Positions 5,529-31,282 of a DNA stretch of 32,000 bases are shown here, piece after piece; within the stretch, counting starts at the first letter, position 1, and every line of letters starts with the position of its first letter. The stretch is taken from positions 3,300,001-3,332,000 of the forward strand of contig NC_002939.5 in assembly GCF_000007985.2 (NCBI RefSeq). The letters are read 5' to 3'. A program made the position numbers and the translations under genes. Source of the DNA: Geobacter sulfurreducens PCA. GTDB lineage: Bacteria; Desulfobacterota; Desulfuromonadia; Geobacterales; Geobacteraceae. Under the pieces are notes generated by a model, which searched no databases, was not told where the DNA came from, and was given only the letters and a program-made list of their open reading frames with translations.

Positions 5529-5548
5529 GCAGGAAAATGACAGTGGAC

Positions 5549-11098: not shown

Positions 11099-11203
11099 GA
11101 CAGTACCTCCATACATCTGAATGGCCCCGTCCCTGGGAAGTATGCTTGACAAACACTCCAGCGGGAGAATCGTTGTTTTCCCATTATTTACATATATCGG
11201 CAG

Positions 11204-11230
11204 GTACGGAGAAAACTTTACATCTATTCG
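11204..11230 (-). promoter_or_regulatory. Near-consensus sigma28 (FliA) promoter of the giant peptidase gene
   Basis: The minus strand reads TAAAGTTT (11230-11223), tctccgtacct (11 nt), then GCCGATAT (11211-11204), compared with TAAAGTTT-N11-GCCGATAA. It lies about 100 nt upstream of ATG 11098. Confidence 0.7.
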
Positions 11231-11566: not shown

Positions 11567-11625
11567 GTCACTATTCCTGACAATATATCCTTGGACTAAT
11601 AGTCCACAACCCCGGAGAACCGACC

Positions 11626-11820: not shown

Positions 11821-11872
11821 CATCATTAGCGCGAAAACGAAAACTCCTTAAGTTTGCATGGAGGATATGTTC

Positions 11873-12631: not shown

Positions 12632-12671
12632 TATTTGTACACAGCTTGGTATTTTCAGGGATGGCGATTCA

Positions 12672-15742: not shown

Positions 15743-15757
15743 CGTAATGGTTGCCAA

Positions 15758-16948: not shown

Positions 16949-16972
16949 ACATGAAACAGGAATAGCCACGTT

Positions 16973-19900
16973 ATGATCTGTCACATTGCTTTCGAAAGCG
17001 ACTACTCTTTCGCGCTACACAACCTGCTCTTGAAACACTTCGATATCAACGAGCATATTTTTCTGATATGCGGCAGAGCCTCATGGGATTCGACGAAACA
17101 ATTTCAATACAGAAACAGCGTTAAGGTCGCAGACCTGAACTCTCAGGAAGTCCGGCGACTCCTCTGCGAGTCGGAACAGATTATTATTCATGGCTTATTT
17201 TTCGGGGAAGTGGTCGACTACTTTCACCGCAACCAGGATCTTCTGCCCAAGACCAGTTGGAAGCTCTGGGGCGGCGACCTTTACTGTTACAGGAATGCAG
17301 GAACGACAGACTTTCCTGCTGAATATGAGGAGAAAAGGAGACAGGTCATCCGGAACTTCGGTCGGATAATCTGTGTCTTAGAGGAGGATTATCAACTCGC
17401 CCGACAGGTATACGACACCAAGGCCACCCGTGCACATGGGTTCTACCCGTTGCTGCTCAATTACGACTACCTTGATTCGCTACGAAAACCTCGCGCTCCG
17501 TCGGAGATAATCACCGTTCAAGTCGGCAACTCTGCAACACGCGAAAACTGCCACGAAGAAGCATTCGAACACCTCATCCATCTCGACAACGACAACATGA
17601 GAGTCTGCTGTCCCCTCTCCTACGGTGACAAATCCTATGGCAACGAGATTATTCGGTTGGGGATGAAACTGTTCGGAAGTCGGTTCTGCCCCCTGACCGA
17701 TGTTCTCCCATTCAAGGAGTATTCCGACCACCTCAGCTCAGTTGATGTCGCCGTTATGAACCACAACCGTCAGCAAGGGCTCGGCAACACAGTAGCGTTG
17801 TTGTATCTCGGCAGGAAAGTATATATGCGGCATGACACGACGTCCTACAGTTGGCTGATGAAACACGGAATCACCGTCTACGATATGCGGAATTTGGGGC
17901 ATGCTTCATTTGCCGAGTTTTCGCATATTGAAGAGGATGTGGCGGCGCGAAACACAGAGATCATCGGCAGGGAATTCTCGGACGATGCATGCGTAAAGCT
18001 ATGGAAGTCAATTTTCAGCTCAAAGGGAAGACAATCTAAGATGACGGTACCGAATGAGAAGGGTTCACTAATTCAAAAACTCAAGCACCAATATTTCCCC
18101 GGCTCCAACTTCGTAGGCCCTTACGAGCAAAACGGCCACGCCCCATCCATCTATGAAGAGCAGTGGCTGTGGGCACATCGCCATCTGATCAAAGGAACCG
18201 TCCTTGACATGTCCACACCCCGTTATTGGCACGAATTCATTCATACCATGGAATCGGTTTCTCGTGTCGTCATCAGCGAGATGGGATGCGACACCGTAAC
18301 CAAATACGGCAAGAGCTCATCGGTAGACATAGTAGCCGATTTCTGCGATCCGAATCTGCCAGTGGCTCCGGAAACGTTCGACACCATCCTCTGCCTGAGC
18401 ATCCTGGAACACTGCACCAATCCCTTGTCCATGGTAAATAATCTTTACAAGTTACTCCGCCCCGGAGGCACCGTTTTCTTCTGGGCACCCTTCGCCTACA
18501 TCGATGGGCACCTTGAGCCTGACTATTGGCGTTTCGGGCGTGACGGCTTCCGTCTTCTGGTCAAACAGGCTGGGTTTGAAATCATGGAAGAAGGAAACTT
18601 CGGGGACCTCGGAAAATATTTCCTCCAAGAATTTGGATTTGATGCATCAGCACGGAACGGTCATCGTGGTGTGCCCTGCGCCAACTGGATTATCTGCAAA
18701 AAACCGCAGGATACCAGGACCCTCCCCAAGCCTACACATGGGATCTCGACGAGCGCGGGGAACTCACCCCTCCGCCTTTACGCCGGCGACATCCCCAACC
18801 GCCCCGAGTACGAAGGCTGGCTCGGCCTCTCGCTAACCCAGGAAAACGACCGCCATATCCGGCACGACATCACCCGACCCCTTCCCTTCGCCGACAACTC
18901 GGTGGACGCTTTCCAGGCTGAAGATGTGCTGGAGCATATCGCCTATGACCGGATCGTCCCCGTTCTTAACGAAATCCATCGTGTACTCAAACCGGGCGCA
19001 GTGTTCCGGCTCTCCGTCCCCGACTATCGTTGCGATATCCTTGACGCCAGAACGGAAAAGGACGCAACGGGAGCGCCCGTCTTCGATCCCGGCGGAGGAG
19101 GTACCAGAGAAAATCCGGGGCACGCCTGGTTCCCCCGCTACGAGACGGTTAAGACCCTGGTCGAAAAATCTAATTTTGGAACAGCGGGAGAAATTTCATT
19201 CCTTCACTACTACGACGAGCATAACCTTCCGGCGATGCGGGAGATCGACTATGCGAAGGGATTTATTCAGAGGCCCCCGGACCACGACCCGCGGGTGCAA
19301 ACACCCTACCGTCCGATGTCTCTAGTCGTAGACCTGACAAAAAGAGACGTAAGAATATTTTCTTCATTCAACAACTCCGCATCTCACGCGAATACGAATG
19401 TTGGCGGCACCGATGCTCACTCCATCGCCGAAACCGCAAGCCGAATATTGCAGGCGGGTGAAAAGCTCTATTCTGAAGGATACACCGCAGATGCAGAGGG
19501 ATGCTTCAACGCTCTCCTCGTCATGCAAGAGCCGCTTGCCACCGCCCACAACAATCTTGGCGTAATCCACCAGGGCCGCCATGAACTCGATAACGCTCTT
19601 GAACACTTCAGATCAGCACTGGCCCTCATGCCGTCACATCGGGAGGCACGTGAAAACATCAAAGCCACCCTTTCATCTGAAAGCATCTATCCCTATGAGG
19701 GGAATCGGTCCAGATCCAATCATTACAATGAAGACTACTTCAATTGGCAAAAGAACATCGGTGCGTTCGGCGGAAGAGCCAACCTCTTTAAGTTCAGCGA
19801 ATTCATAACACCTTCCGACACTATACTCGACTTCGGCTGCGGAGAAGGATATCTCCTCTCAAACATCACCTGTGCAAGGAAGATCGGAGTAGAACTGAAC

Positions 19901-20347
19901 GAAGCAGCCCGAAGAACCGCATGGGCACAGGGGGTAGAAGCATTCGCGTCTCCGGAGGAGATCCCCTTTGGAACTGCAGACCTGGTGATCTCCAACCACG
20001 CGCTGGAACATGTGCTGTCACCGCTCGAAACGCTCCAAGCCCTGATCAAGACGCTCAAGCCGGGGGGGATGACCGTTTTTGTCGTCCCCCACCAGGATAC
20101 ACGGGAAGAATACAATCCCGACGACATCAACATGCACCTCTACACCTGGAACCAGTTGACGCTGGGCAATCTGTTCCGGCAGGCAGGATTCTCTGTTGAA
20201 CGCGTCGAGGCGATCCAGCACCAATGGCCGCCCAATTTCGCAGAGGTCTATGCCCAGGTCGGCGAAGCGGAATTTCACCGGATATGCCGGCAAACGGCTA
20301 TTCAGAACAATAATTACCAGATTCGGATAGTTGCCCGCAGAAAGTGA
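16973..20347 (+). CDS. Multidomain protein: WecF-like (GT56, 4-alpha-L-fucosyltransferase family) glycosyltransferase, two divergent class I methyltransferase-like modules, TPR and one canonical class I methyltransferase
   Basis: aa 1-350: IIHGLFF, WKLWGGDLY (17258-17284), VQVGNSATRENCHEEAF and NHNRQQGLGNTVALLYLG resemble E. coli WecF blocks. aa 400-545: FDTILCLSILEHCTNP..LLRPGGTVFF. aa 600-760: PLPFADNSVDAFQAEDVLEHI..VLKPGAVFRLSVPDY. aa 825-900: TPR-like. aa 915-1090: ILDFGCGEG (19823-19849)...LKPGGMTVFVVP. Confidence 0.72.
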   Translation: MICHIAFESDYSFALHNLLLKHFDINEHIFLICGRASWDSTKQFQYRNSVKVADLNSQEVRRLLCESEQIIIHGLFFGEVVDYFHRNQDLLPKTSWKLWGGDLYCYRNAGTTDFPAEYEEKRRQVIRNFGRIICVLEEDYQLARQVYDTKATRAHGFYPLLLNYDYLDSLRKPRAPSEIITVQVGNSATRENCHEEAFEHLIHLDNDNMRVCCPLSYGDKSYGNEIIRLGMKLFGSRFCPLTDVLPFKEYSDHLSSVDVAVMNHNRQQGLGNTVALLYLGRKVYMRHDTTSYSWLMKHGITVYDMRNLGHASFAEFSHIEEDVAARNTEIIGREFSDDACVKLWKSIFSSKGRQSKMTVPNEKGSLIQKLKHQYFPGSNFVGPYEQNGHAPSIYEEQWLWAHRHLIKGTVLDMSTPRYWHEFIHTMESVSRVVISEMGCDTVTKYGKSSSVDIVADFCDPNLPVAPETFDTILCLSILEHCTNPLSMVNNLYKLLRPGGTVFFWAPFAYIDGHLEPDYWRFGRDGFRLLVKQAGFEIMEEGNFGDLGKYFLQEFGFDASARNGHRGVPCANWIICKKPQDTRTLPKPTHGISTSAGNSPLRLYAGDIPNRPEYEGWLGLSLTQENDRHIRHDITRPLPFADNSVDAFQAEDVLEHIAYDRIVPVLNEIHRVLKPGAVFRLSVPDYRCDILDARTEKDATGAPVFDPGGGGTRENPGHAWFPRYETVKTLVEKSNFGTAGEISFLHYYDEHNLPAMREIDYAKGFIQRPPDHDPRVQTPYRPMSLVVDLTKRDVRIFSSFNNSASHANTNVGGTDAHSIAETASRILQAGEKLYSEGYTADAEGCFNALLVMQEPLATAHNNLGVIHQGRHELDNALEHFRSALALMPSHREARENIKATLSSESIYPYEGNRSRSNHYNEDYFNWQKNIGAFGGRANLFKFSEFITPSDTILDFGCGEGYLLSNITCARKIGVELNEAARRTAWAQGVEAFASPEEIPFGTADLVISNHALEHVLSPLETLQALIKTLKPGGMTVFVVPHQDTREEYNPDDINMHLYTWNQLTLGNLFRQAGFSVERVEAIQHQWPPNFAEVYAQVGEAEFHRICRQTAIQNNNYQIRIVARRK

Positions 20348-23300
20348 GCATAACGCCAATGAATACCACGCCCGTCATTCTTGTTTGCTACAATAGGCCG
20401 CACCACACGGCGGAGATGCTCAAGGCCCTTGAGGTCCACAATATCCAGAACCTGATCATTTTCGCCGATGCACCCAAATCGGACAAGGACGTGGAGGGAG
20501 TTCGCGCAACAAGGAAACTGCTCGAAGGCATCCGGTGGACCCACCCCGAAATCGTATTCCAGACAGAAAACCAAGGGCTCGCAAAATCAATCGTTTCGTC
20601 TGCGAATTATGCTTTTTCACTACATGACCGGCTGGTCCTGCTTGAAGATGATTGCGTACCCCAACGCCACTTCTTCGACTTCATGTCAAACTGCCTGGAC
20701 AGGTACGAAGAAAATGAGAAGATTTTCGGCATCAGCGGATACACGGTTCCGATCCCGTCCAGACTGCAGGAGCAACACCCCTATGACCTCTATTTCTATC
20801 CTCGCATTGGCAGTTGGGGATGGGGAACGTGGAAACGGGCATGGCAACATTACGACACCGATCTCGTAAAGCTTTGCCGGAAAGCTCTGGAATCAAACAT
20901 CGACTTAACGCAAGGAGGTGTTGATATCCCGGTCAACATTGAGGGACTTCTTCGCGGGACATTGAAGGATGTGTGGACCCTGAACTGGGTTCTCACCGTA
21001 TATCTCAACAAGGGCTATTACATCTACCCCACCAAGTCCCACATCAACAACATAGGATTCGATGGCACCGGTGTCCACTGCGGAAAATCCGACCTTTTCC
21101 AAACCATTCTTGCCGATTCACCCGCAATTCGGTTCCCGTCGGATGTGGTCCTGAACTATGACCTTATCAGTCATTACAATATGTATTTCGGAGGTCCTGT
21201 TGTAACTCCGCCCCCAAGGGAACCTGCCGGCTTGAACGCCGTTCCCGAGGCTGCATCCAGAAAGGCTCCGCTGAACGTTGCTCTCCTTTCCACCATGGAC
21301 TTCGGTGGTGCCGGCAAAGCAACCCATCGTCTCCTCAGGGGTCTTCAGGCGTACGGCAGCGACGCACTGATGGCTGTGCTATGTAAAAGCACAGAAGATC
21401 CATCCATAAAGCTGTTGAGCAATTCTGCCGGAGGTTTGACGACTGTCTCAGCCGAAGGTGCAGGACGATGGGAAGAACTCTTCCGGAAGTGGCGCGGACA
21501 GTTGGCAGGCTATACAAACCGGCCGGAAGGACTTGAAATTTTTACCGACTCCCGTTCCCGGTTCTCCCTGGAGGATATCCCCGAACTCCAGAGAGCCGAC
21601 ATACTCAACTTTCACTGGATGGCCGGACTGCTCAACTATCCGACGTCTTCCTCGGCCCTGAAGGGAAAAAAAATCGTCTGGACCCTCCACGACATGAATC
21701 CCTTCACCGGCGGCTGCCACTATGCCGGCGAGTGCACCGGATATCTCCGCTCATGCGGTACGTGTCCCCAACTCGGTTCCAGTGACAAAGAAGATCTTTC
21801 ACGAAAAATTTGGGAAGACAAACGGGCCGCGTACGCCGACCTGGACCTGACTATCGTAACCCCGAGTCGCTGGCTGGCTGAATGCGCCCGCAACAGCTCG
21901 CTCCTTTCCCGCTTCCCGGTCCACGTCATACCCAACGGACTCCCCACGGACATTTTCCGCCCACATCCGAAGGACGAGCTCCGCCGGTCGTTCAACATCC
22001 CCGAACACGCCCGGGTGATATTGTTCGGTGCCGATTATGATACCCGTCGCAAAGGTTTCCACTATCTTGTAGATGCCCTGAGAGCTCTTCCCGACAAGCG
22101 CAACCTGGTGCTCGCGTCATTCGGGCCTCTCCCGGAGACCAAGTTCAGCAGCGAATTCCTCACGATGAACTTCGGTTCGATCTCCAATGAGACTCGCCTA
22201 GCCCAAATCTACAGCCTTGCCGATCTCTTTGTCCTACCGTCAATGGAGGACAACCTCCCGAACACAGTCATTGAGTCGATGGCCTGCGGAATACCGGTGG
22301 TCGGCTTCAAGATCGGGGGCATGCCCGACATGATCGAACACAAGGTGAACGGCTACCTGGCTCAACCAGGGGATGTCACAGGGCTCACTGAGGGAATCCG
22401 TTGGTGCCTCGCAAATGCATCAGCACTCAAACTTGGCGAACGGTGCAGGGAGAAGGTTGAGCTGGAGTATTCCCAGCGGGTTCAGGCTGAGAGCTATACC
22501 AACCTCTATGAGAACATACTCCTAGGGAAAAGTGCCGTCAAATCTTTGGCAGCACCTGCCTGTTCGGCGGACTCGATCCTCATCGCCGCCAACCTGGTCC
22601 CCTTCCGGGACGCGGGGCAGCGGCAACGGCAGGATACCGGCATAGCTAGCATCACCGCCCTTGTAGCGAAGGGCATCATTCCCCTCAACATCTGCTACCC
22701 GGACGAACTCCTAGAGCCGGCCGACTGGCAGACAGCAACAATGCTCGAGCGCAGCGCGAACGTAGAACTGAAGATCGACGGCAAGCGCAAGCCGTTCGTC
22801 ATCGACCTCTTCGATATCGCCGCCCAGTGGGCAACAGCCCACGGAATTACGTGGTTCGCCATCACCAACAGCGATATCGTCCTGACAGACGCGCTCATCG
22901 CCGAGTTGCGGCGCCTTCAAGCCGACGGCATCGAAACGGTTGCCATCTCACGCAACGAGGTGGAACGGGTGGAGGGGGACGGCAGGCTCGTCCCTGGCTA
23001 CCTGGAGGTGAACGGCTACGATATCTTCCTCTGCAGGAGCTCCTGGTGGCAGTCGAACCGTCACCGCTTCCAGCCATATATCTACGGCGAACGGGCCTGG
23101 GACGACGCCTACGCGGCCATCATGGCATGCCACTCTCGCTTCGCCATGCTCTACCAGGACGGCCTCTGCTTCCACTTCAAGCACCCGACCAGCTGGATCT
23201 CCGGCCCATACTCCGACTACAACATGGGGCTCTATACCGGCATCGACAAACCTTACAGCGACCGATACGAGGCGTTCATTAAGGAGGTGCTTGCCCTGAC

Positions 23301-26300
23301 CAAGGCACAGCTCACCCCAGCGAAGACCGCCGAACTGGTGGCGAAGCATTTTTCACCGCCCCCCCCCGTGCCGGTGAACTCCTCTCAGGGCTTCGTCAAC
23401 ATCGGCATGATCACCTACAACCGCCTTGATTTCACGAAACTCTGCCTGGAGGCGTTCGAGCGGACCGTCGACTATCCTCACCGGCTTACCGTCATCGACA
23501 ACAACAGCCAGGACGGGACCGTGGAGTTCCTGCGGAAGCTGCAAGCCCAGGGCGTCATCCACAACCTGATCCTCTTGAACGAAAACGTTGGGGTGGCCAA
23601 GGCGTCGAACCTCGCCTGGGCAATGGAGCCCGATGCCCCGTACTACATGAAGCTCGACAATGACATCGTCTTCCAGAAAATGGGGTGGCTCTCCCGACTG
23701 GTGGAGGTGATTGAAAGGGTGCCGCAGATCGGGGCGGCGGGTTACAACTTCGAGCCCGTCAGCTATCCCCTCTACGAGCTGAACGGCTGCCAGGTCAGGA
23801 TCAAGGAACCGGGGAATCTGGGGGGGGCATGCATCCTGATCCCGAAGCGGACCGAACGGCTCCTCGGCAACTGGTGCGAGGATTATGGCCTTTACGGTGA
23901 GGAGGACGCCGATTATGGCTTCCGGATCCGCTGCGCCGGTCTTCTCAACGCCTACATGGAGGACGAGGAGATTGGCTTCCACCTTCCTGCGGGCAAAGCG
24001 GCGACCATCGACAGTGCAACCCTGGTGGCCCTTGACGGGCAGGAGGAGGACCTCCACGCAGACTACCGCAAGTGGAAGGACGAACTGCGTCGCAAAAACG
24101 TACACGGTCCTTTCAAGCGAAACTTGGAGCGTTATGCTCACGACCCGACTTCACTCTTCCAGCAATCGCGCTTTGCCACAGAGTGGTTGCGGACTCACCG
24201 ACCGGACATTGACGTTTCGCCACTGAAAACAACGGGGGGCAAGCTCACCATCACCCTGCTTTCCCTCGACCTTCCCTCCCATGCCTGCATGCAGCTCAGG
24301 ATCACCGGCCCCGCAAGCGCCTTCTCTGATGAGGTGGAGCTGCTTCAAGCCGTTACCAATGACGGGACAAAGTATCTCATCAACTCCGACTCCATAGACC
24401 GGGCCGACCTGATCATCGTCCAGCGGTTCTTCCCTCGGCCAGAAACAGAGCGTCATCTGCAGAAGGCCCTGGCGTCGGGCAAACCGATCATCTACGAGTT
24501 TGACGACCTCCTGACCGACCATTCTCCGGACAATCCGCACCGGGAATTGAGCACCCTCTGTGCTCCTTTCGTTTCCGCACTTCTTGCCAAGGCAGACGGG
24601 GTAACGGTATCCACCGACCTTCTCGCCAGTGCTCTTCTCCCAAGAAAGGGAACAGTCCATGTTCTGCCGAACCTCCTTGACGAGAAGCTCTGGGCCGCTC
24701 CGCCGGCGTCACGCCCGACCGGCGCTCCGGTAATTATTGGCTATGCCGGTACACCAGGGCATGAGGCGGACCTGGCGCCGATCGAGGAGGCGCTGGAGCG
24801 CATCGCCCGAATGTACGGACACCGGGTAGCGTTCCGCTTTTTCGGCTGCGCCACCGAGCGTATCAGGAAACTTCCTGGCTATACCTTCATACCCTTCACA
24901 GGCAATTACTCTGAATACGCAGCCACCTTGCAAAATTCCGGCATCGACATCGGCCTCGTCCCCCTGGAGGACAACCGCTTCAACCGCTGCAAGAGCAACA
25001 TCAAGTGGCTCGAATACTCGGCCTGCGGCATAGCCGGCATCTACGCCGACCTCCCCCCCTACCGCTCGTGCGTGAAGGAAGGGGAAACGGGGCTCCTGAT
25101 AGCTGGCTACGACGTGGACGCCTGGGTGGCGGCCATCGAAAGCCTCATCGACAACCCGGCCCGCCGCCATGCCATGGCCCTGGCGGCCCGCACCGAGGTC
25201 CTCGCCAACTACACCCTCAAGAGCCGCGGCCACCTTTTCCTCGACACTTGGCGCCGGATCGCCGGCCGTGCCGATACCACAGCCAAGGAGCAGCAGATGC
25301 CCATCTCACCGCAACCGTTCGCGCCGGTCGCCGCAGCCACTGGCTCAGACGCCCCGAAGGTATCCATCATCGTCCCCCTCTACAACAAGGCGGAGTACAC
25401 CAAGCAGTGCCTGGAGGCCCTGGCCCTCAATACGGAGCAGGCCCTGAACTACGAGGTCATCCTCGTGGACAACGCTTCGAGCGACGGCACCGCCGAGTAC
25501 CTGCGCACCCTTTCGGGGGACGTGACCATCGTGACCAACCTGAAGAACCTGGGCTTTGCCAAGGCGTGCAACCAAGGGGGGCGGATCGCCCGGGGGCGGT
25601 ACCTGGTTTTCCTGAACAACGACACCATCCCCCATCCGGGGTGGCTCGACGGGCTCATCAAGGGCGCGGAGCAGGACGGCGCCGACATCGTGGGGGCCAG
25701 GCTCCTCTACCCCAACGGCCGGGTCCAGCACGCCGGGGTGGCCTTCAACGAGCAGTCCATCGGCTACCACATCTTCAACGGCTTCCCGGCAGACTCGCCG
25801 GCCGTCAACCGCAAGCGGTTCATGCAGTGCGTGACCGCCGCCTGCATGCTGGTGAAACAGGAGCTCTTCGCGGAGCTCGGCGGCTTTGACGAGGGGTACG
25901 TGAACGGCTTCGAGGATGTGGATTTCTGCCTCCGGGCCGGGGAGCGGGGCCGCCGCATCCTCTACACCCCCGAAAGCGTTTTGATCCACTTCGAGGAGAC
26001 CAGCGAGGGTCGCAAGGACCACGACACCCCCAACATCCGCCGCTTCCTGGCCCGCTGGGAAGGGAAGGTCCGCTGCGATCATCAGGATATCTACCGTTCC
26101 GAGGGGTACCGGGCCGAACGGCAGGCCGACGGCAGGCTGCGCATCTACCAGGCAGACGTGGCGCCCGTGTCGTCAGCTCCGACGGCTCCGCAGCAGGTCA
26201 CGCCGACACCGGGCACCGGGGCTGCGGCGGCAACGCCGTCCGTTTCGGGGCGGGAAAAGGCCCTTGCCCTGAAGGCGGAAGGACGGTACGTGGAGGCCAT

Positions 26301-27549
26301 CGAGCATCTGGTCAAAATTGTGACAGCGGGTGACAACTCCGTGCTCGTCGATCTCGGCGACTGCCTGGCGAGCCTGGAGAAATACGACGACGCCCTGGCC
26401 CTTTACGAGGAAAGCCTTGCCCTGTGCCCCACCAACGGGCGGGCGCTGGTGGGGGTCGGTGTTGTCAGATATATGACACGACGGATCGCCGAGGCGGCCG
26501 ACGCCTTCAGCCGGGCACTGGAAACCGACCCTGCCGACCCGAAGGCCCTTTGCGGCCTGGGCATGGCCCGCTGCGCCCAGGGACGGAACGCGGAAGGGTT
26601 CGAGCTCTACGGCCGGGCGCTTGAGGCCGAGCCGGAGAACCTGACCGCAGTGCACGAATCGGTGAGGCTTGCCTATGAGCTGGGACGCTTCAGCGAGGCG
26701 GCCAAGCGACTTGAGTCATACCTGCGCCATCATCCGGGCGACATCGACATCCTCTTTGCCAGTGCCGGACTCCTTCACATGGCCGGCAGGAACGCCGAGG
26801 CCCGTGACGCCCTGGAGCGGCTGCTGGTGTTCTCCCCCGATTACAGCGGGGCCATGGAGTTGCTGGCGAAGCTGGAGGAGCAGGACCAAGAGCCGGGTGA
26901 AAGAGCCACGGAAGCTGAAGCCCGCAGGCTCAAGGAAGACGGGAAGTACGAGGAGGCCCTGACGGCCTTCTCCCGGGTCGCAGAGGCCGGCGATTCATCG
27001 GCCCTGGCCGACATGGGGGACTGCCTTGCCCAGCTGGGACGGCTCGACGAGGCGGCCGCCCGTTACCTGGAAGCCCTGGATGCCGACGGAGCAAACCTCA
27101 AAGCCCTGGTGGGGCTCGGAGTGGTATCGCTGGTCCAGGGGAAACAGGTGAAGGCGGTCACTTGGTTCAACAGGGCCCTCAAGGCGGACCCCGCCAACGC
27201 AAAGGCTCTCTGCGGGCTCGGGATGGTCCGGAACATGCAAAACAAGCATGACGAGGCGTTCAGCCTCCTTGCCCGGGCCGTTGATGCGGACCCCGAGGGC
27301 CTCACGGCCCTTCACGAACTGATCCGGCTCTCCTATGCCACCGGCCGGTTCGATGAAGCGGGAGAACGGCTCGACCGGTACCTGATGCACCACCCCGCAG
27401 ACCTGGACATGGTCTTCGCCCAGGCAGGCATCCGCTTCAAGGCGGGCCGCTATGCCGAGGCCCTGTCGAGCATCGAGACGGTGCTCCTCTTTGCCTCCGA
27501 CTACGAAGGGGGGCTGGAATTGCGGGAAGCGATCACCCAAGCCATGTAG
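20344..27549 (+). CDS. 2401-aa multi-glycosyltransferase protein: GT-A, GT4/GT-B, an unassigned domain, GT2, a GT-B-like domain and GT2, followed by a Pro/Thr linker and a duplicated TPR array
   Basis: D1, aa 8-280: VILVCYNRP...LLEDDC (EDD at 20644-20652). D2, aa 308-725: LPSMEDNLPNTVIESMACGIPVVG. D3, aa 740-1000: unassigned. D4, aa 1016-1260: ITYNRLDF..VIDNNSQDGT..KLDNDIVF (23656-23664)..GEEDADYGFR. D5, aa 1298-1640: IGYAGTPGH...KSNIKWLEYSACGIAGI. D6, aa 1672-1910: VSIIVPLYNKAEYT..LVDNASSDGT..FLNND (25615-25623)..GFEDVDFCLR. TPRs span aa 1970-2400. The GTG start at 20344 overlaps the upstream stop (GTGA); an alternative ATG is at 20359. Confidence 0.8.
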   Translation: MSITPMNTTPVILVCYNRPHHTAEMLKALEVHNIQNLIIFADAPKSDKDVEGVRATRKLLEGIRWTHPEIVFQTENQGLAKSIVSSANYAFSLHDRLVLLEDDCVPQRHFFDFMSNCLDRYEENEKIFGISGYTVPIPSRLQEQHPYDLYFYPRIGSWGWGTWKRAWQHYDTDLVKLCRKALESNIDLTQGGVDIPVNIEGLLRGTLKDVWTLNWVLTVYLNKGYYIYPTKSHINNIGFDGTGVHCGKSDLFQTILADSPAIRFPSDVVLNYDLISHYNMYFGGPVVTPPPREPAGLNAVPEAASRKAPLNVALLSTMDFGGAGKATHRLLRGLQAYGSDALMAVLCKSTEDPSIKLLSNSAGGLTTVSAEGAGRWEELFRKWRGQLAGYTNRPEGLEIFTDSRSRFSLEDIPELQRADILNFHWMAGLLNYPTSSSALKGKKIVWTLHDMNPFTGGCHYAGECTGYLRSCGTCPQLGSSDKEDLSRKIWEDKRAAYADLDLTIVTPSRWLAECARNSSLLSRFPVHVIPNGLPTDIFRPHPKDELRRSFNIPEHARVILFGADYDTRRKGFHYLVDALRALPDKRNLVLASFGPLPETKFSSEFLTMNFGSISNETRLAQIYSLADLFVLPSMEDNLPNTVIESMACGIPVVGFKIGGMPDMIEHKVNGYLAQPGDVTGLTEGIRWCLANASALKLGERCREKVELEYSQRVQAESYTNLYENILLGKSAVKSLAAPACSADSILIAANLVPFRDAGQRQRQDTGIASITALVAKGIIPLNICYPDELLEPADWQTATMLERSANVELKIDGKRKPFVIDLFDIAAQWATAHGITWFAITNSDIVLTDALIAELRRLQADGIETVAISRNEVERVEGDGRLVPGYLEVNGYDIFLCRSSWWQSNRHRFQPYIYGERAWDDAYAAIMACHSRFAMLYQDGLCFHFKHPTSWISGPYSDYNMGLYTGIDKPYSDRYEAFIKEVLALTKAQLTPAKTAELVAKHFSPPPPVPVNSSQGFVNIGMITYNRLDFTKLCLEAFERTVDYPHRLTVIDNNSQDGTVEFLRKLQAQGVIHNLILLNENVGVAKASNLAWAMEPDAPYYMKLDNDIVFQKMGWLSRLVEVIERVPQIGAAGYNFEPVSYPLYELNGCQVRIKEPGNLGGACILIPKRTERLLGNWCEDYGLYGEEDADYGFRIRCAGLLNAYMEDEEIGFHLPAGKAATIDSATLVALDGQEEDLHADYRKWKDELRRKNVHGPFKRNLERYAHDPTSLFQQSRFATEWLRTHRPDIDVSPLKTTGGKLTITLLSLDLPSHACMQLRITGPASAFSDEVELLQAVTNDGTKYLINSDSIDRADLIIVQRFFPRPETERHLQKALASGKPIIYEFDDLLTDHSPDNPHRELSTLCAPFVSALLAKADGVTVSTDLLASALLPRKGTVHVLPNLLDEKLWAAPPASRPTGAPVIIGYAGTPGHEADLAPIEEALERIARMYGHRVAFRFFGCATERIRKLPGYTFIPFTGNYSEYAATLQNSGIDIGLVPLEDNRFNRCKSNIKWLEYSACGIAGIYADLPPYRSCVKEGETGLLIAGYDVDAWVAAIESLIDNPARRHAMALAARTEVLANYTLKSRGHLFLDTWRRIAGRADTTAKEQQMPISPQPFAPVAAATGSDAPKVSIIVPLYNKAEYTKQCLEALALNTEQALNYEVILVDNASSDGTAEYLRTLSGDVTIVTNLKNLGFAKACNQGGRIARGRYLVFLNNDTIPHPGWLDGLIKGAEQDGADIVGARLLYPNGRVQHAGVAFNEQSIGYHIFNGFPADSPAVNRKRFMQCVTAACMLVKQELFAELGGFDEGYVNGFEDVDFCLRAGERGRRILYTPESVLIHFEETSEGRKDHDTPNIRRFLARWEGKVRCDHQDIYRSEGYRAERQADGRLRIYQADVAPVSSAPTAPQQVTPTPGTGAAAATPSVSGREKALALKAEGRYVEAIEHLVKIVTAGDNSVLVDLGDCLASLEKYDDALALYEESLALCPTNGRALVGVGVVRYMTRRIAEAADAFSRALETDPADPKALCGLGMARCAQGRNAEGFELYGRALEAEPENLTAVHESVRLAYELGRFSEAAKRLESYLRHHPGDIDILFASAGLLHMAGRNAEARDALERLLVFSPDYSGAMELLAKLEEQDQEPGERATEAEARRLKEDGKYEEALTAFSRVAEAGDSSALADMGDCLAQLGRLDEAAARYLEALDADGANLKALVGLGVVSLVQGKQVKAVTWFNRALKADPANAKALCGLGMVRNMQNKHDEAFSLLARAVDADPEGLTALHELIRLSYATGRFDEAGERLDRYLMHHPADLDMVFAQAGIRFKAGRYAEALSSIETVLLFASDYEGGLELREAITQAM
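26251..27543 (+). repeat. Internal duplication of a TPR module of about 210 aa (two copies offset by about 220 aa / 660 nt)
   Basis: The block KAEGRYVEAIEHL..LVDLGDCLASL..ALVGVGVV..DPADPKALCGLGMAR..RLESYLRHHPGDIDILFASAG..FSPDYSGAMELL aligns colinearly with KEDGKYEEALTAF..LADMGDCLAQL..ALVGLGVV..DPANAKALCGLGMVR..RLDRYLMHHPADLDMVFAQAG..FASDYEGGLELR. Confidence 0.7.
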
Positions 27550-27568
27550 GAAGGCAGAACGGTTGGCC

Positions 27569-29368
27569 ATGTCCCATTTCGAGAAGAACATAGCGGCCCT
27601 GCATCGCCGCAATCCGCCCCTGGCCGAATGCCTTGAGGCCGTGACGCCGGGCGGAGATCTCCATCTCGGCGAGGCCCGCAACGGCGAGCCCACGGCCCGC
27701 AGCGGCGAGGTCTGGCTCCATTCCCCCTACAACCCCACACGGGAGGCCCAGGAATGGGCACGGGCACAGGCAGAGCGGTTCACGCCGGATGCCCCGCTCA
27801 CCGTGGTCGGCTTCGGCCTCGGCCACCATCTGCGGGAACTGGCAACCCTCGGCTTTGGCGGTACGGTCATCGAAAAAAGCCTGGCGCTGTTGAAAGCCGC
27901 CCTGGAGGCGTCGGACCTGGTACCCGTTCTGGAGCGTTTCGAACTGATGGCAGGGATTCCCGCCGACTTGATCCGACGCCGCCATAACCACCTCCTGCGG
28001 GGCAACACCACGGCCCATCCGGCCACGGTCCGGATCAGCCCGGACATGGCCACCCTTGCCCAGTACGCCGACGGATACGACCCGGCGGCCCGGGGGGGAC
28101 TCAAAATCCTGCTGGTGAACCCCATCTACGGCGGCTCTCTGCCGGCGGCCCACCACGCGGCACGTGCCCTGCGGGCCCTGGGGCACCAGGTGATCCCCTT
28201 CGAGAGCGAACGGCTGGCCGCGGCCATGGATTTCGGCAAGGAATTCATCTTCAACCAGAGCCGCCGGGCGTTCCACGCCGGGCTCACCTCGCTCCTCTCC
28301 CAGGCGGTTGAGCTGCGGGCCCGGGAGACCCGGCCCGACATGATCCTGGCCCTGGCCCAGGCGCCGCTCCTCCCCGAGACCATGAAACGGATCGAGGCCC
28401 GGGGAATCCCCACGGCATTCTGGTTCGTGGAGGACTACCGGGTACTCCCCTACTGGCGCGACTCGGCACCGGCTGCGTCCTATTTCTTCGGCATCCAGAC
28501 GGACAACTTCGCCGCTGAACTGGCCCGGGCCGGGGTTACCCGTTATGCCTACCTCCCCACCTGCGCCGAACCGTCGGTCCACCGGCCAATGGAGCTGACC
28601 CCGGCCGAACGGGAAGAGTTCGGCAGCCCCCTTTCCTTCGTGGGGGCCGGCTACTACAACCGGCAGATATTCTTCAAGGGACTCACCGACTTCCCCTTCC
28701 GGATCTGGGGGAGCGACTGGCCCTTCCCCTCGCCCCTGGTCCCCTTCATCCAGCGGGGTGGCGCACGAATCGACACGGAGACCACGGTCAAGATTTTCAA
28801 TGCGTCAGCCGTGAACCTGAACCTCCACTCCTCCACCACCTGCGACGGGGTGGTGCCCGACGGAGACTTCGTGAACCCCCGGACCTTCGAGCTGGCCGCC
28901 TGCGGGGCCTTCCAGCTGGTGGACCGCCGCGCGCTTCTGCCGGAGCTGTTCGATGAGGGAGAGCTGGAAACCTTCGGCTGTCTTGACGAAGCACGGGAAA
29001 AGATCAGCCGCTTCCTGGCCGATCCCGAAGAACGGCGGCAGGTTGCGGGCCGCGGCATGGCCCGGGTCCTGGCTGAGCATACCTACGAACACCGCATGGC
29101 TGAACTGGTGGCCCTCATGACTGGCACCTTCCCCCACCTGGCCGAGCGGATCCGACAGCGGGCAGACCAGCGGGACGAAATCATGGCCGACCTGGACCGG
29201 CATCCCGGGCTCGCCGGCCTGCTCGCCACGCTCCCCGACCAGCGCTGGTTCACCCTCAACGATGTGCTCGGCACCATCGTGACCGGCCAGGGGAAACTCT
29301 CCCGGGCCGAAAAGCTGTTCCTCATGCTCCAGAACGTCGAGGTCCTCTGGGAGAAAATTCCGGAATGA
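27569..29368 (+). CDS. Glycosyltransferase with a Maf-like N-terminal region and a CgeB-like (DUF3880 / Glyco_trans_1_2) C-terminal region
   Basis: The N-terminus MSHFEKNIAALHRRNPPLAECLEAV...LTVVGFGLGHHLREL resembles the start of motility-associated-factor (Maf) flagellin glycosyltransferases. The C-terminal half, LKILLVNPIYGGSL...FVGAGYYNRQ...NLNLHSS...VNPRTFELAACGAFQLVD...AEHTYEHRMAEL, resembles the CgeB family. The start is set at ATG 27569. Confidence 0.7.
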   Translation: MSHFEKNIAALHRRNPPLAECLEAVTPGGDLHLGEARNGEPTARSGEVWLHSPYNPTREAQEWARAQAERFTPDAPLTVVGFGLGHHLRELATLGFGGTVIEKSLALLKAALEASDLVPVLERFELMAGIPADLIRRRHNHLLRGNTTAHPATVRISPDMATLAQYADGYDPAARGGLKILLVNPIYGGSLPAAHHAARALRALGHQVIPFESERLAAAMDFGKEFIFNQSRRAFHAGLTSLLSQAVELRARETRPDMILALAQAPLLPETMKRIEARGIPTAFWFVEDYRVLPYWRDSAPAASYFFGIQTDNFAAELARAGVTRYAYLPTCAEPSVHRPMELTPAEREEFGSPLSFVGAGYYNRQIFFKGLTDFPFRIWGSDWPFPSPLVPFIQRGGARIDTETTVKIFNASAVNLNLHSSTTCDGVVPDGDFVNPRTFELAACGAFQLVDRRALLPELFDEGELETFGCLDEAREKISRFLADPEERRQVAGRGMARVLAEHTYEHRMAELVALMTGTFPHLAERIRQRADQRDEIMADLDRHPGLAGLLATLPDQRWFTLNDVLGTIVTGQGKLSRAEKLFLMLQNVEVLWEKIPE

Positions 29369-30918
29369 AAGAGATCGCCCTTCTCGCCATAGCCCGATAC
29401 GGGGACCTGATCCAGACGACGCCGCTGGTGCGGGCGTTGCGCCGCGCCCACCCCGGCGCCCGGATCACCGCCATCGTGGAGGACCGCTTTTGCGGCATCC
29501 TGCCGCTGCTCCCCGGCATCGACCGAACCATCGTCCTCAACAAGCAGGACATCGCCTGGGACATCGCCACCGGCGATTCTCCCCTGGTGCCCTACCTCAA
29601 GATGGATGAGTTCGTCCGGAAGCTGGAGGAGGGGAGCTACGACCTGCTGGTCAACATCACCTGTTCGCGCCTCTCCGCCTTTTTCGCCTCCTGCGTCACG
29701 AGCCGCCGCCGCACCGGCATCTCGGCCGACGAGGCCGGGGAGCGGAACATCGTGACCCTCTGGGGGCAGTACATCTTCAGCTGGTTCAACGACAACATCC
29801 GCAAGTATAACGCCATCAACCTGGTGGATATCTTCACCCGGCTGGGCGAGGTCCCTCCAGACGGGCGCCGGGTAGAACTGGTCGCCACGGAGAAGGGGGA
29901 GCGATTCGCCGACGACTTCCTGGACCGCCATGGGCTCAGGGGGCAGCGCCTCGTGGGACTGCAGCTGGGGGCCAGCGAGGCGACCCGGATCTGGCCTGCC
30001 GAGCACTTCGCCCGCATCTCGGATCGGCTCCAGCGGGAACTGGGGGTACGGACCATCCTCTTCGGGGCTCCCGTGGAAAAGCACCTGGCCGGGCAGGCTA
30101 TGGCCGCCATGGAAATGCCGGCCGTGGACGCGGTGGGCGAAACCGGGATCGAAGAACTCTACTCCCTGGTGGGGCGCTGCGCGGCCCTGGTATCCAACGA
30201 CACCGGCACCATGCACTTCGCCGCCGCGGCCGGCGTGCCCGCGGTCATGCTCTGCATTGGCCCGGCTTTTTTCCGCTGCACCGGCCCCTATGGCGAAGGG
30301 CACCTGGCGCTCCAGCCCGACCTGCCCTGCTCGCCCTGCCCCTACAGCCTGGTCTGCGCCGATCCGGTCTGCCGCGACACCATTTCTCCCGAGGCGGTCT
30401 TCTCGGCTTGCCGCATGATCCTGGCCGGCGCTGATGGGTTGGGGAATGCCGATTTTTCCGGCGTGAGGGTCTATCGGAGTTCATTTGCTCCCGACGGATA
30501 CCTGACATGGGATGGCCTGTTCAATGTGGACGCCTGGGAAGAAGAGCAGGTCAAGCGGCGCGAATCCGCCTGGAAGGGATGTTTCGACGGAAGCACGAAG
30601 GGGTGCGGTGCTCCCGGCGACGAGACCTTGCGGGCCTTCTGGGAGCTCACGGGGCGGGGGATTGAAGCAACAGAGGCCATCATCCGGGCGGCTCGGAAAA
30701 AGCCCCTGCCCGTGGACGAGATCCGGCGCCTCGGCGAGAAGGAGTCGGCCATCGAGGCGGAGGTGAAGCTCATGGGCTATCGTCACGAACCTCTGGCCCC
30801 GGTCACCGAATTCCTGACGCTCATGCGTGAAAACATCACCGGCGAGGAGCTGGGGCGGATCGCGCGGGAGACGCGTTCCCTTTACGAGACCGGGCGCTGC
30901 CTGGCGGCACTGCTGTAG
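29365..30918 (+). CDS. Glycosyltransferase family 9 (heptosyltransferase-like) with a C-terminal extension of about 150 aa
   Basis: LLAIARYGDLIQTTPLVRALRRAHPGARITAIV, GLQLGASEATRIWPAEHF and LVSNDTGTMHFAAAAGVPAV are GT9 hallmarks. There is an ATGA overlap with the upstream stop. Confidence 0.82.
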   Translation: MKEIALLAIARYGDLIQTTPLVRALRRAHPGARITAIVEDRFCGILPLLPGIDRTIVLNKQDIAWDIATGDSPLVPYLKMDEFVRKLEEGSYDLLVNITCSRLSAFFASCVTSRRRTGISADEAGERNIVTLWGQYIFSWFNDNIRKYNAINLVDIFTRLGEVPPDGRRVELVATEKGERFADDFLDRHGLRGQRLVGLQLGASEATRIWPAEHFARISDRLQRELGVRTILFGAPVEKHLAGQAMAAMEMPAVDAVGETGIEELYSLVGRCAALVSNDTGTMHFAAAAGVPAVMLCIGPAFFRCTGPYGEGHLALQPDLPCSPCPYSLVCADPVCRDTISPEAVFSACRMILAGADGLGNADFSGVRVYRSSFAPDGYLTWDGLFNVDAWEEEQVKRRESAWKGCFDGSTKGCGAPGDETLRAFWELTGRGIEATEAIIRAARKKPLPVDEIRRLGEKESAIEAEVKLMGYRHEPLAPVTEFLTLMRENITGEELGRIARETRSLYETGRCLAALL

Positions 30919-30919
30919 C

Positions 30920-30946
30920 TAAAGTTTTCCGGTCCGCGGCCGAAAC
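30920..30946 (+). promoter_or_regulatory. Sigma28 (FliA)-type promoter of flbD-motA
   Basis: TAAAGTTT (30920-30927), tccggtccgcg (11 nt), then GCCGAAAC (30939-30946), compared with TAAAGTTT-N11-GCCGATAA. It starts 2 nt after the GT9 stop codon and lies 38 nt upstream of the flbD ATG. Confidence 0.6.
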
Positions 30947-30983
30947 GATATCATAGCGGACCATTTTCTGAAGAGGAACTCCA

Positions 30984-31262
30984 ATGATCAGACTGACACG
31001 TCTCGACGGCGATGTTTTTTTCGTGAACCCGGATCTCATCGAGGCCATCGAGGAAACCCCGGACACCCATATCGTTCTTTCCAACGGCCGTCGCTACTTG
31101 GTCATCGAAAAAACCGACGCCATCGTCGCCCGTATCATCAGCTTCAAGTCGTCGGTGATGAAACGCGCTCTCGGCGGCCACGGCCGCAAGTATCTCCGGC
31201 GCAAGATGGAGGGAAGCTACCTCCCCCGCTGCCCCTTGAAACCGGGCCATAACACCGACTAA
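30984..31262 (+). CDS. flbD: Flagellar protein FlbD
   Basis: MIRLTRLDGDVFFVNPDLIEAIEETPDTHIVLSNGRRYLVIEKTDAIVARI is the conserved FlbD core. It lies immediately upstream of motA, as in many flagellar loci. Confidence 0.85.
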   Translation: MIRLTRLDGDVFFVNPDLIEAIEETPDTHIVLSNGRRYLVIEKTDAIVARIISFKSSVMKRALGGHGRKYLRRKMEGSYLPRCPLKPGHNTD

Positions 31263-31282
31263 CAGGAAAGGTCAGGCGACGT

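Follow-up and report, generated by a model that had tools for sequence, protein, structure and literature searches.

A single 7.2-kb reading frame in Geobacter sulfurreducens PCA raises the question of what glycan so large an enzyme might build, and on which acceptor. The frame lies on the plus strand at 20344..27549 of the window analyzed here (a 32,000-nt stretch of NC_002939.5, to which all coordinates refer). It encodes a 2401-aa protein with six glycosyltransferase (GT)-like modules followed by a duplicated TPR array, and we found no convincing membrane segment in it. Judging from sequence features and gene neighborhood, we consider it probable that this giant works in the cytoplasm as a TPR-docked, multi-module O-glycosyltransferase of flagellin and belongs to a flagellar glycosylation island, in which it is most likely the central enzyme and the builder of a strain-specific flagellin glycan. 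Our literature search found no experimental report of glycosylated Geobacter flagellin.

Integrity of the giant reading frame

The frame starts with GTG, overlaps the stop of the upstream gene by 4 nt and has no internal stop in translation; an alternative ATG at 20359, called in another assembly, gives a 2396-aa product. Across 20984-32000 the window is matched at 100% identity by a Logan assembly of run SRR2119418, an independent assembly although not necessarily independent sequencing, since it and the other assemblies may share reads with the assembly from which the window comes. An identical 2401-aa product is present on two contigs, and other samples also contain the same island type. 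The uninterrupted frame described in an earlier note on this DNA is thus real. That note also called the number of fused modules exceptional, which is true only in relation to characterized multi-GT enzymes with their two or three modules (PMC11231755). Database-wide, giants with this many modules are numerous: 225 proteins of 1300-4193 aa match at E<=1e-20, with similar or larger module counts.

Six glycosyltransferase-like modules and a TPR array

We count six GT-like modules, where five or six had been proposed, in the order GT13-like GT-A, GT4, a GT-A family without annotation, GT2, CgeB-like GT-B and GT2, and the TPRs that follow are strong Pfam matches. The linkers are Pro/Ala/Thr-rich. 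Counted on the residue-numbered translation, the motifs EDD, DND, NND, EDNLPNTVIESMACGIPVVG, and EDVDFCLR all fall where the earlier note had placed them.

M1 (20344..21228; aa 1-295) is a GT13-like GT-A module of the GnT-I/POMGnT1 type, with EDD at aa 101-103 (nt 20644-20652). Its Pfam score is sub-threshold, and its predicted model matches the GT13 enzymes POMGnT1 and GnT-I in Foldseek at E 1e-10 to 1e-7. The confidence of that model is moderate (pLDDT 74.7; TM-scores ~0.45-0.5), which we also hold against the flagellin assignment. M2 (21256..22563; aa 305-740) is a GT4-type GT-B module with Pfam matches to Glycos_transf_1 (84.6 bits) and Glyco_transf_4; it contains EDNLPNTVIESMACGIPVVG, its (E)D-x7-E motif is intact, and the M1-M2 pair is a widespread di-module. 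The next ~260 aa had been called unassignable; the region is real and has no Pfam model, but it can be assigned as an autonomous domain of GT-A fold, M3 (22576..23358; aa 745-1005), which belongs to a small family, exists elsewhere as a free-standing protein of ~280 aa, and carries NSD (aa 842-844) at the DxD position. M4 (23386..24243; aa 1015-1300) is a GT2 module of GT-A type with DND at aa 1105-1107 (nt 23656-23664), and its match (46 bits) covers only the N-terminal half of the GT2 model. M5 (24271..25293; aa 1310-1650) is of the GT-B, Glyco_trans_1_2 (CgeB-like) type (38 bits), only the C-terminal half of a GT-B being matched. M6 (25336..26133; aa 1665-1930) is a GT2 module (104 bits) with NND at aa 1758-1760 (nt 25615-25623) and EDVDFCLR. 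The TPR array (26269..27522) comprises two tandem units of ~200 aa each (aa 1976-2173 and 2196-2393) with 49% mutual identity.

Some of these modules could be dead relics kept as scaffolds, so that fewer sugars would be added than there are modules. The low or missing Pfam scores of M1 and M3 and the half-matches of M4 and M5 are compatible with such a partly degenerate fusion, as is the loss of M5 from the L023 orthologue. On the other hand, the acidic motifs of M1, M2, M3, M4, and M6 are intact or conserved: the M1 EDD is invariant in a 13-sequence alignment and kept in at least 90% of 60 homologous modules, the M3 NSD is invariant in stand-alone homologues, and M4 and M6 retain their DxD-type and ED-D motifs. 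Moreover, many proteins contain these modules as conserved cassettes (40-70% identity), a pattern that points to purifying selection. We regard the degenerate fusion as unlikely.

A conserved core joined to a strain-variable cassette

Comparison of strains divides the giant in two. Against KN400-type alleles, 93-95% DNA identity begins at nt 24242, the M4/M5 junction, and against radical-SAM-type alleles it begins at nt 24656-24719, so that the recombination breakpoints (24242..24719) lie at that junction or within M5. Since G. sulfurreducens strains share this identity only from nt ~24242, M6 and the TPRs form a conserved core, and M1-M4 (M4 being the last variable module) with the upstream sugar genes form a strain-variable cassette. 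M5 is mosaic among strains (63-80% aa identity), M6 is 95-96% identical across strains and 74-86% in other Geobacteraceae, and the TPR array is 96-97% identical across strains. The variable region runs from flaG (minus strand, 5082..5462), its conserved left border, to nt ~24242, with a GC fraction of 0.44-0.60 vs 0.63-0.67; low GC combined with strain variability is a pattern usual for glycosylation islands.

Partner genes and the question of a lipid carrier

From 11873 through flbD-motA the genes form a tight same-strand array with 4-nt overlaps. Four plus-strand sugar-precursor genes (11873..16948) encode a methyltransferase (11873-12631), a fused PDH-type E1 alpha-beta protein (12672-14630), a lipoyl-domain/VioB-family N-acyltransferase (14627-15742), and a DesI/VioA-like aminotransferase (15764-16948). 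An 1124-aa protein (16973..20347, plus strand), translationally coupled to the giant, combines a WecF-like GT56 module with about three stretches of methyltransferase type and a single TPR, and is a candidate capping transferase and methylase. Downstream on the same strand lie two conserved partners, a CgeB-like GT (27569..29368; DUF3880 plus Glyco_trans_1_2; 599 aa as called in other assemblies), 95-98% identical across strains and 49-74% in relatives, and a 517-aa GT9-family GT (29365..30918), 97% identical across strains and 45-75% in relatives.

These partners invite comparison with lipid-carrier polysaccharide polymerases for O-antigen, capsule or exopolysaccharide, WbdA/WbbB-like and ABC-transporter-dependent, in which the 1124-aa protein would be the chain terminator. 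Multi-GT polypeptides with methyltransferase terminators are a hallmark of ABC-transporter-dependent O-antigen systems (PMC11231755), the best family match of the GT56 module is the TDP-Fuc4NAc:lipid II transferase WecF (304 bits, although under the 457-bit cut-off), the GT9 partner resembles LPS heptosyltransferases, and O-antigen loci are typically also low in GC and strain-variable. That GT56 and GT9 enzymes classically use lipid-linked or LPS acceptors also counts against flagellin as the acceptor. However, neither the 32-kb window nor its 10-kb flanks, in several strains, contains wzm/wzt, wzx/wzy or any other flippase, polymerase or ABC exporter, a priming phosphoglycosyltransferase, a ligase or an outer-membrane export gene. 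The locus is set among flagellar genes in this species, its relatives and distant phyla. The LPS of G. sulfurreducens reportedly lacks O-antigen repeats, and the genes for the cytochrome-anchoring exopolysaccharide are located elsewhere. A 430-aa TPR array, finally, has no role in characterized polymerases, which use coiled-coil rulers (PMC11231755). A polymerase of this kind is improbable here, though slightly less so than the degenerate fusion.

Flagellar context and the acceptor

The earlier note saw no flagellin gene in the window and missed the flagellar context: flaG, flbD (30984-31262), and motA (from 31283), the last two on the plus strand at 30984..32000, with motB following past the window end. 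In Geobacteraceae relatives the same giant-CgeB-like-GT9-flbD-motAB block is followed by fliS, fliD, two 277-aa fliC genes, fliW, flgL, and flgK; flagellin lies ~12 kb from the giant, a proximity seen at 52-70% identity in the relatives and not in G. sulfurreducens itself, where motB is followed by an insertion of three genes (aas-type, amidohydrolase, and sigma-54 activator) and the loci examined end at PilZ. A relative's flagellin has a central segment rich in Ser/Thr/Ala/Gly. Gene context could be retrieved for four distant homologues, from Geomonas, a Desulfuromonadaceae MAG, an Ignavibacteria contig, and an ENA contig, and in all four cases flagellin, flaF or flbT is less than 10 kb away. 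Against flagellin we count that fliC proximity comes from relatives only and that a search for a sigma-28 or sigma-54 promoter of the plus-strand operon found none.

Gene association cannot separate flagellin from another flagellum-coregulated acceptor. A cytoplasmic protein GT could act on a pilin, a hook-associated or other surface or flagellum-associated protein, or on the product of 5621..11098 (minus strand), in the variable region, the Ser/Thr-rich repeat protein that had been offered as an alternative acceptor. The latter is not a flagellin; it is an 1825-aa, secreted or anchored M6-type zinc metalloprotease with a Sec-type N-terminal signal peptide or anchor and seven pairs of Ig-like repeats. 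Every island type examined has its own large M6-type protease adjoining flaG, with different repeats, and here a near-consensus sigma-28 (FliA)-type promoter match (TAAAGTTT-N11-GCCGATAT; minus strand, 11196..11220) lies ~100 nt upstream of the protease-flaG unit, with the same pattern upstream of fliC in relatives. The promoter and the Thr/Ser/Ala-rich repeats would suit such an acceptor, but a signal peptide or anchor would imply unfolded passage through Sec, hard to square with oligosaccharides added earlier in the cytoplasm, so that the protease is the poorer candidate; in relatives and distant lineages with the conserved core, the recurring neighbor is flagellin, not an M6 protease. A non-flagellin acceptor therefore seems unlikely to us, on a par with the degenerate fusion.

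Flagellin thus remains our preferred acceptor. The earlier proposal of a TPR-docked GT placing a multi-sugar chain on it is strengthened by flaG, flbD, and motA, by fliC in relatives, by all four homologues and by the lack of export and lipid-priming genes, while glycan, acceptor, and activity are predictions. The soluble, cytoplasmic giant would dock unfolded or chaperone-free flagellin through its duplicated C-terminal TPR array, FlmG-like, before export by the flagellar type III system. Its six tethered modules, with the CgeB-like and GT9 partners, would add sugars sequentially from nucleotide-sugar donors to flagellin Ser/Thr, no lipid carrier being involved. The coupled GT56-methyltransferase-TPR protein may then add a terminal N-acylated, methylated 4-amino-4,6-dideoxyhexose supplied by the E1, lipoyl-VioB, and aminotransferase genes, a cap comparable to the modified viosamine on Pseudomonas syringae flagellin. 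In this scheme docking and the inner sugars would fall to the conserved half (M5-M6-TPR, CgeB-like GT, GT9), and the exchangeable half (M1-M4, 1124-aa protein, sugar genes) would determine the strain-specific outer glycan.

Comparison with known systems

In Caulobacter crescentus FlmG the TPR domain is necessary and sufficient for flagellin binding, and modification is cytoplasmic (PMC7591256). The giant resembles it in architecture and context, as a soluble TPR-plus-GT protein among flagellar genes, and its homologues also lie beside flaF/flbT, as flmG-type genes do. FlmG, however, is a 596-aa protein that pairs an N-terminal TPR with one GT-B domain and attaches a single pseudaminic acid, whereas the giant has six GT-like modules and a C-terminal duplicated TPR, a placement that we count against the flagellin assignment, and the window has no nonulosonic-acid genes. 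In GmaR, the flagellin O-GlcNAc transferase of Listeria monocytogenes, an N-terminal GT domain precedes the TPRs (PMC3150276), the order of the giant's conserved M6-TPR end. GmaR differs in that its one GT domain and three TPRs are accompanied by a C-terminal anti-repressor domain, and in that it attaches GlcNAc residues singly.

The strain-variable P. syringae and P. aeruginosa islands (Fgt1, Fgt2, VioA, VioB, VioM, VioT/OrfN) build the oligosaccharide directly on flagellin Ser and end it with an N-acylated, O-methylated 4-amino-4,6-dideoxyhexose; in P. syringae, VioA/VioB/VioM and the 1173-aa VioT cap a Rha-Rha chain (PMC3927599). The same functional set (aminotransferase, VioB-type acyltransferase, methyltransferase, and a capping transferase, there of 1173 aa) is found in the window. 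In Pseudomonas the GTs are individual proteins that lack a long TPR array, and an ACP/KAS/reductase set supplies the acyl group, whereas here one chain of 2401 aa unites the GTs, and an E1 plus lipoyl-domain system appears to be the source of the acyl donor. WbdA, WbbB, and Klebsiella O7 ORF6 likewise fuse several GT modules, one per linkage, sometimes with methyltransferase terminators, and the distribution of such modules among proteins varies by serotype (PMC11231755). These polymerases, with two or three GT modules each, act at the membrane on undecaprenyl-linked acceptors, use coiled-coil rulers, and are encoded alongside wzm/wzt; the giant has none of these features and instead has a TPR array and flagellar neighbors.

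Module organization of the giant, a predicted glycosyltransferase

The giant gene (20344–27549, +) starts with GTG and encodes 2401 aa with zero internal stops. Two contigs carry the exact 2401-aa product, including the 198-kb MAG contig DNKT01000084.1 (GCA_003488685.1); a separate assembly of run SRR2119418, which may share its reads with the MAG, matches window positions 20984–32000 with 100% identity, and its product there is 2396 aa with an ATG start at 20359. Pfam and structure models together find six glycosyltransferase (GT)-like modules followed by a docking-type repeat array, in agreement with an earlier note that had counted five or six GT modules plus a TPR array. The motifs listed there (EDD at aa 101–103, DND at aa 1105–1107, NND at aa 1758–1760, and the GT4 and ED-D-FCLR strings) were all found in place when counted on the translation and on a residue-numbered module printout. 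The modules are M1 (aa 1–295, GT13-like GT-A), M2 (aa 305–740, GT4 GT-B), M3 (aa 745–1005, at 22576–23358, +; a GT-A fold without a Pfam family), M4 (aa 1015–1300, GT2), M5 (aa 1310–1650, CgeB-like GT-B) and M6 (aa 1665–1930, GT2). The TPR array (aa ~1976–2393) consists of a ~200-aa unit duplicated in tandem, the two copies sharing 49% identity (E 7e-68). The linkers between modules are Pro/Ala/Thr-rich, and a hydropathy scan found no convincing membrane segment in the protein.

M2 (Glycos_transf_1, 84.6 bits, plus Glyco_transf_4), M4 (Glycos_transf_2, 46.2 bits) and M6 (GT2, 104 bits) all score above the Pfam gathering score and have acidic motifs; M5 matches Glyco_trans_1_2 with 38 bits. M1 reaches only a sub-threshold 18.7 bits as a GT2 in Pfam, and its own sequence has no Pfam match to PF03071 (GNT-I), a match that several homologues carry as a precomputed annotation. 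By phmmer it matches POMGnT1 weakly (E 0.037), with the M1 EDD aligned to the POMGnT1 acidic motif. For the AlphaFold model of M1, made with 13 homologous segments (pLDDT 74.7, pTM 0.77), Foldseek ranks POMGnT1 (E 1.2e-10) and GnT-I (E 8e-8) highest, with TM only ~0.45–0.48. All 13 aligned sequences have the EDD, as do at least 90% of 60 homologous modules. Partial degeneracy of the giant's modules is conceivable, and this kind of motif conservation argues against it.

The ~260 aa of M3 had been thought unassignable. They indeed have no Pfam or PDB sequence match, but fold prediction now assigns them a GT-A fold; PDB sequence searches with M3, M4 and the CgeB-like GT returned nothing, so the M3 fold is resolved by structure prediction only. 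The best matches of its model (pLDDT 84, pTM 0.85) are the GT-A glycosyltransferases WrtF, AvpGT, SpsA, RmlT and K4CP (E ~1e-6 to 1e-5, TM 0.43–0.52), followed by sugar nucleotidyltransferases of the same superfold. The M3 alignment has an invariant strand-NSD motif at the DxD position, within an invariant WF-x-I-[ST]-NSDI pattern. M3 is an autonomous domain, occurring in stand-alone proteins of 274–321 aa and in TPR-fused forms. It belongs to a small family with a predicted GT-A fold and without a Pfam model; at E≤1e-3, 1.84 billion proteins yield 236 representatives, most of them stand-alone and ~280 aa long.

Strain variation and module cassettes

DNA identity of 93–95% to other G. sulfurreducens-type loci begins only at nt 24242 (KN400-type allele) or 24656–24719 (another type) and runs onward from there; these starts correspond to aa ~1300 at the M4/M5 junction or to a point inside M5. 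Between strains the protein identities are 95–96% for M6, 96–97% for the TPR array, 95–98% for the CgeB-like GT and 97% for the GT9 encoded downstream, and 63–80% in a mosaic pattern for M5. M1–M4 are absent from the other alleles. One of these encodes a 2597-aa protein with a GT2-GT2-GT1-type front; the other encodes an 1897-aa protein whose front is of the radical-SAM/SPASM type, and a separate GT2 gene lies before it. On the left side, conservation ends just after flaG. The variable block (~5500–24242) has a GC content of 0.44–0.60, compared with 0.63–0.67 outside it; it resembles a flagellar glycosylation island in that it lies beside flagellar genes, varies in content between strains and has an atypical base composition.

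Throughout the database the modules are distributed as cassettes. The M1-M2 di-module is present in at least 79 of the 120 matches listed, M5 and M6 co-occur, one homologue (P0029) has M3-M4-M5 together and the orthologue at locus L023 has M3-M4-M6-TPR. At locus L013 the TPR unit follows the giant as a gene of its own, and in another homologue (P0121) it is joined to a lone M3. Modules do therefore occur as separate genes elsewhere, as the earlier note had proposed to check, M3 in its stand-alone form and the TPR unit in L013. The number of TPR units also varies, with one ~240-aa unit in the related locus L017 (17725–18450) and two in the window (26269–27522), L019 and L023.

At E≤1e-20 a homology search with the giant found 225 proteins, of which the 120 listed are 1331–4193 aa long. 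Their domains are combinations of GT2, GT4, GNT-I, methyltransferase, radical-SAM and TPR, and their sources include Desulfuromonadaceae, Geotalea, Geomonas, Ignavibacteria, Fibrobacteria and Planctomycetota; with 225 such proteins the description of the module number as exceptional fails as a statement about databases. The multi-module GTs that have been characterised contain two or three modules (PMC11231755); the giant is thus unusual against the literature, not against sequence space. What distinguishes it is that six modules are fused and that alleles exchange the catalytic front half while the docking core is conserved.

Flagellar and sugar genes around the giant

That no flagellin gene lies in the window had been noted, but other flagellar genes there were overlooked: flaG (5082–5462, −; a 126-aa ORF), flbD (30984–31262, +) and then motA, with motB just past the window. 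The same FlbD and CobU proteins are present in the complete genomes CP002031.1, AP017912.1 and CP072789.1, which we take to be Geobacter sulfurreducens strains; related loci bear the labels Geobacter, Geobacteraceae or Desulfuromonadales.

The genes from 11873 to motA lie close together on one strand (+) and overlap by 4 nt in three places; their order is methyltransferase, fused PDH-type E1 alpha-beta, lipoyl-domain/VioB-family N-acyltransferase, DesI/VioA-like aminotransferase, 1124-aa protein, giant, CgeB-like GT (27569–29368), GT9-family GT (29365–30918), flbD and motA. The 1124-aa protein (16973–20347, +), whose stop overlaps the giant's start by 4 nt, contains a WecF-like GT56 module (304 bits to the TDP-Fuc4NAc transferase model, below the cut-off of 457 bits), about three methyltransferase stretches and one TPR. 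The N-acyltransferase scores 194.5 bits with the VioB-family model TIGR03570 (above the cut-off of 160.8) and the aminotransferase 512.8 bits with the DesI-type model (below the cut-off of 650); the window has no rmlA/rmlB and no NeuB/PseI-type or CMP-sugar synthetase genes. The window's sugar genes point to a dTDP-4-amino-4,6-dideoxyhexose. The GT9 partner was also considered as a TibC/Aah-type protein-heptosylating enzyme, and this was rejected since only generic GT9 and LPS heptosyltransferase structures matched.

At its front the N-acyltransferase (14627–15742, +) is E2-like, with a lipoyl/biotinyl-type hairpin, LIESSKSVIDV (K44), together with a stretch similar to a peripheral-subunit-binding domain (SKKALLLMKQHNIDVGAFDGLGMVTAQDVEHYL); this front is joined to a left-handed beta-helix domain of the NeuD/PglB/VioB family. 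With E1 alpha-beta encoded directly upstream (the pair spans 12672–15742), this E2-like front suggests that a 2-oxo-acid-derived acyl group may pass from lipoamide directly to the amino sugar, bypassing acyl-CoA. A 64-aa ORF at 11627–11821 (+) resembles the N-terminal Rossmann fragment of a GFO/IDH/MocA-type sugar oxidoreductase and is probably a recombination remnant at the island edge. Some 1.1–4.6 kb past the window's right end (L001 22590–26091, −), the MAG has no called gene but two ORFs, of 839 aa and of 736 aa, where other strains have, at the same place after motB, a single 1136-aa MFS-acyltransferase-AMP-binding (Aas-like) gene; a frameshift or pseudogene in the MAG is possible.

Every window ORF of 100 aa or more, and every gene called in the 10-kb flanks of several strains, was accounted for; none encodes a flippase, polymerase, ABC exporter (ABC-2, wzm/wzt) or priming transferase. 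This absence of export and priming functions, the TPR array and the position among flagellar genes all speak against the alternative that the giant polymerizes a lipid-linked polysaccharide, which we disfavour.

Flagellin genes in related loci

A scan for relatives of a second CgeB-like GT (beside PilZ, downstream of motB) found seven Geobacteraceae/Desulfuromonadales loci at 39–70% identity. In L017, annotated by local tblastn and Pfam, the order is flgK–flgL–fliW–?–fliC–fliC (277 aa each)–fliD–fliS–fliT-like–?–PilZ–CgeB-like GT–?–motB–motA–flbD–GT9–CgeB-like GT–giant (TPR, M6, M5 ...). Flagellin, with a Ser/Thr/Ala/Gly-rich central segment, lies ~12 kb from the giant's stop codon, and the arrangement is the same in L019, L018 and L023. 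This genome-collection scan, meant to reach fliC in G. sulfurreducens itself, returned relatives only; for this species the fliC distance would follow from their synteny and the PCA gene order.

The distant homologues with readable contigs are flagellin-linked in four cases out of four. On Geomonas CP076724.1 a run of GT/TPR giants ends at flaF-flbT; a Desulfuromonadaceae MAG has flbT, two flagellins and a 919-aa GT9 near the giant homologue; flagellin directly follows the GT-TPR genes on an Ignavibacteria contig; and an ENA contig with a giant homologue carries flaF, flbT, flagellin, flgK, flgN, flgM, flgI and flgH.

The second CgeB-like (Glyco_trans_1_2) GT, ~540 aa, lies beside a PilZN1-PilZ (YcgR-like) gene between motB and fliS-fliD-fliC (~18027–20279, −, in L002–L007; 9156–11623 in L017). 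It is conserved across the Geobacteraceae and may likewise belong to the putative glycosylation system of the giant.

The neighbouring M6 protease

Another protein, in particular the neighbouring 1825-aa M6-type metalloprotease (5621–11098, −), may be the acceptor, although we think this less likely than flagellin. About 100 nt upstream of its gene, which reads into flaG, is a near-consensus sigma-28 promoter, TAAAGTTT-N11-GCCGATAT (11196–11220, −), and the sigma-28 pattern also immediately precedes fliC in L017, L019 and L023, as well as flbD in L019; because they share it, the protease looks, by its sequence, like a late flagellar-class gene. Another island type, moreover, has its own M6 protease with different repeats. 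These points favour the protease as acceptor, but its Sec signal peptide argues against glycosylation of the protease in the cytoplasm.

The two island types each have a large signal-peptide M6-type zinc metalloprotease beside flaG, with unrelated repeats: the window protease has 7 CHB_HEX_C_1/Fn3_assoc pairs, and the 1265-aa protease of L009 (3268–7065, −) a different ~90-aa repeat. Its position directly upstream of flaG on the same strand made the 1825-aa ORF a candidate giant flagellin; this was rejected, as it has no Flagellin_N/C and carries a signal peptide/anchor, an HETGH zinc site and an M6 domain (188 bits). In Geomonas locus L012 a sigma-28 pattern (2655–2680, +) lies just upstream of a 398-aa TPR-only gene in a GT/TPR cluster, which hints that parts of such clusters are FliA-controlled. 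No sigma-54 pattern was found in the window, and scans for sigma-70 promoters (15 versus 8.2 expected) and terminators (fewer than expected) were uninformative.

Proposed mechanism

The best-supported reading is that the giant would be a cytoplasmic flagellin O-glycosylation machine. By analogy with FlmG, the TPR array would dock flagellin, and the tethered modules, with the conserved CgeB-like and GT9 partners, would extend the chain directly on Ser/Thr. Capping with an N-acylated, methylated 4-amino-4,6-dideoxyhexose would fall to the coupled 1124-aa GT56-methyltransferase protein. From the conservation pattern, M5-M6-TPR together with the CgeB-like GT and GT9 would provide docking and the inner sugars, and M1–M4 and the sugar genes the strain-specific outer part. 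The earlier note's idea of TPR-docked protein glycosylation is partly supported and gains strong genomic-context backing, with activity, glycan and acceptor as predictions.

A bolder reading, which we hold tentatively and think rather unlikely, is that the giant is a collinear glycan assembly line: module order and identity would specify the flagellin-linked oligosaccharide while the TPR array holds the substrate, strains would swap whole cassettes at linkers on a fixed M6-TPR core (M1–M4 here; GT2-GT2-GT1-type or radical-SAM/SPASM front ends in other strains), and giants of up to ~4200 aa across Desulfuromonadota, Ignavibacteria and other phyla would form one class. If true, such exchange would correspond, for carbohydrates, to the module swapping of polyketide and non-ribosomal peptide synthases.

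Most of what is known of cytoplasmic flagellin O-glycosylation comes from single-domain enzymes (Maf, FlmG, GmaR) or separate GT sets. Six modules and a docking array in one chain would make a compact model for how acceptor recognition is coupled to ordered multi-sugar assembly, and such a protein would be a possible chassis for lipid-free protein glyco-engineering. The allele series, with its docking half in common and its catalytic half different, is a natural domain-swap experiment. That giants recur next to flagellin genes in several phyla points to a widespread enzyme class, as yet uncharacterised. For Geobacter, the proposed role predicts flagellar surfaces that differ between strains, with possible effects on motility to minerals and electrodes as well as on phage susceptibility.

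Comparison with known systems

Our literature search on Geobacter flagellin glycosylation and multi-domain flagellin GTs found no direct report. Like FlmG, whose TPR domain is necessary and sufficient for flagellin binding (PMC7591256), the giant has TPRs (aa ~1976–2393) and GT-B domains (M2 and M5) in one soluble protein. It differs from FlmG in its reversed domain order (PMC7591256) and in having no linked nonulosonic-acid (Pse/Leg) genes in the window; the order GT then TPR is found in GmaR (PMC3150276). Unlike Maf-type enzymes, it lacks the Maf (MAF_flag10) Pfam domain, as do all its neighbours. It resembles O-polysaccharide polymerases of the WbdA/WbbB type in carrying several GT modules in one polypeptide, but is not accompanied by wzm/wzt exporter or priming transferase genes in the window or the 10-kb flanks. 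The cap predicted for the 1124-aa protein would resemble that of P. syringae flagellin, a modified viosamine made by VioA/VioB/VioM and transferred by the 1173-aa VioT (PMC3927599). We would place the giant and its locus among the flagellin glycosylation islands and TPR-docked flagellin glycosyltransferases.
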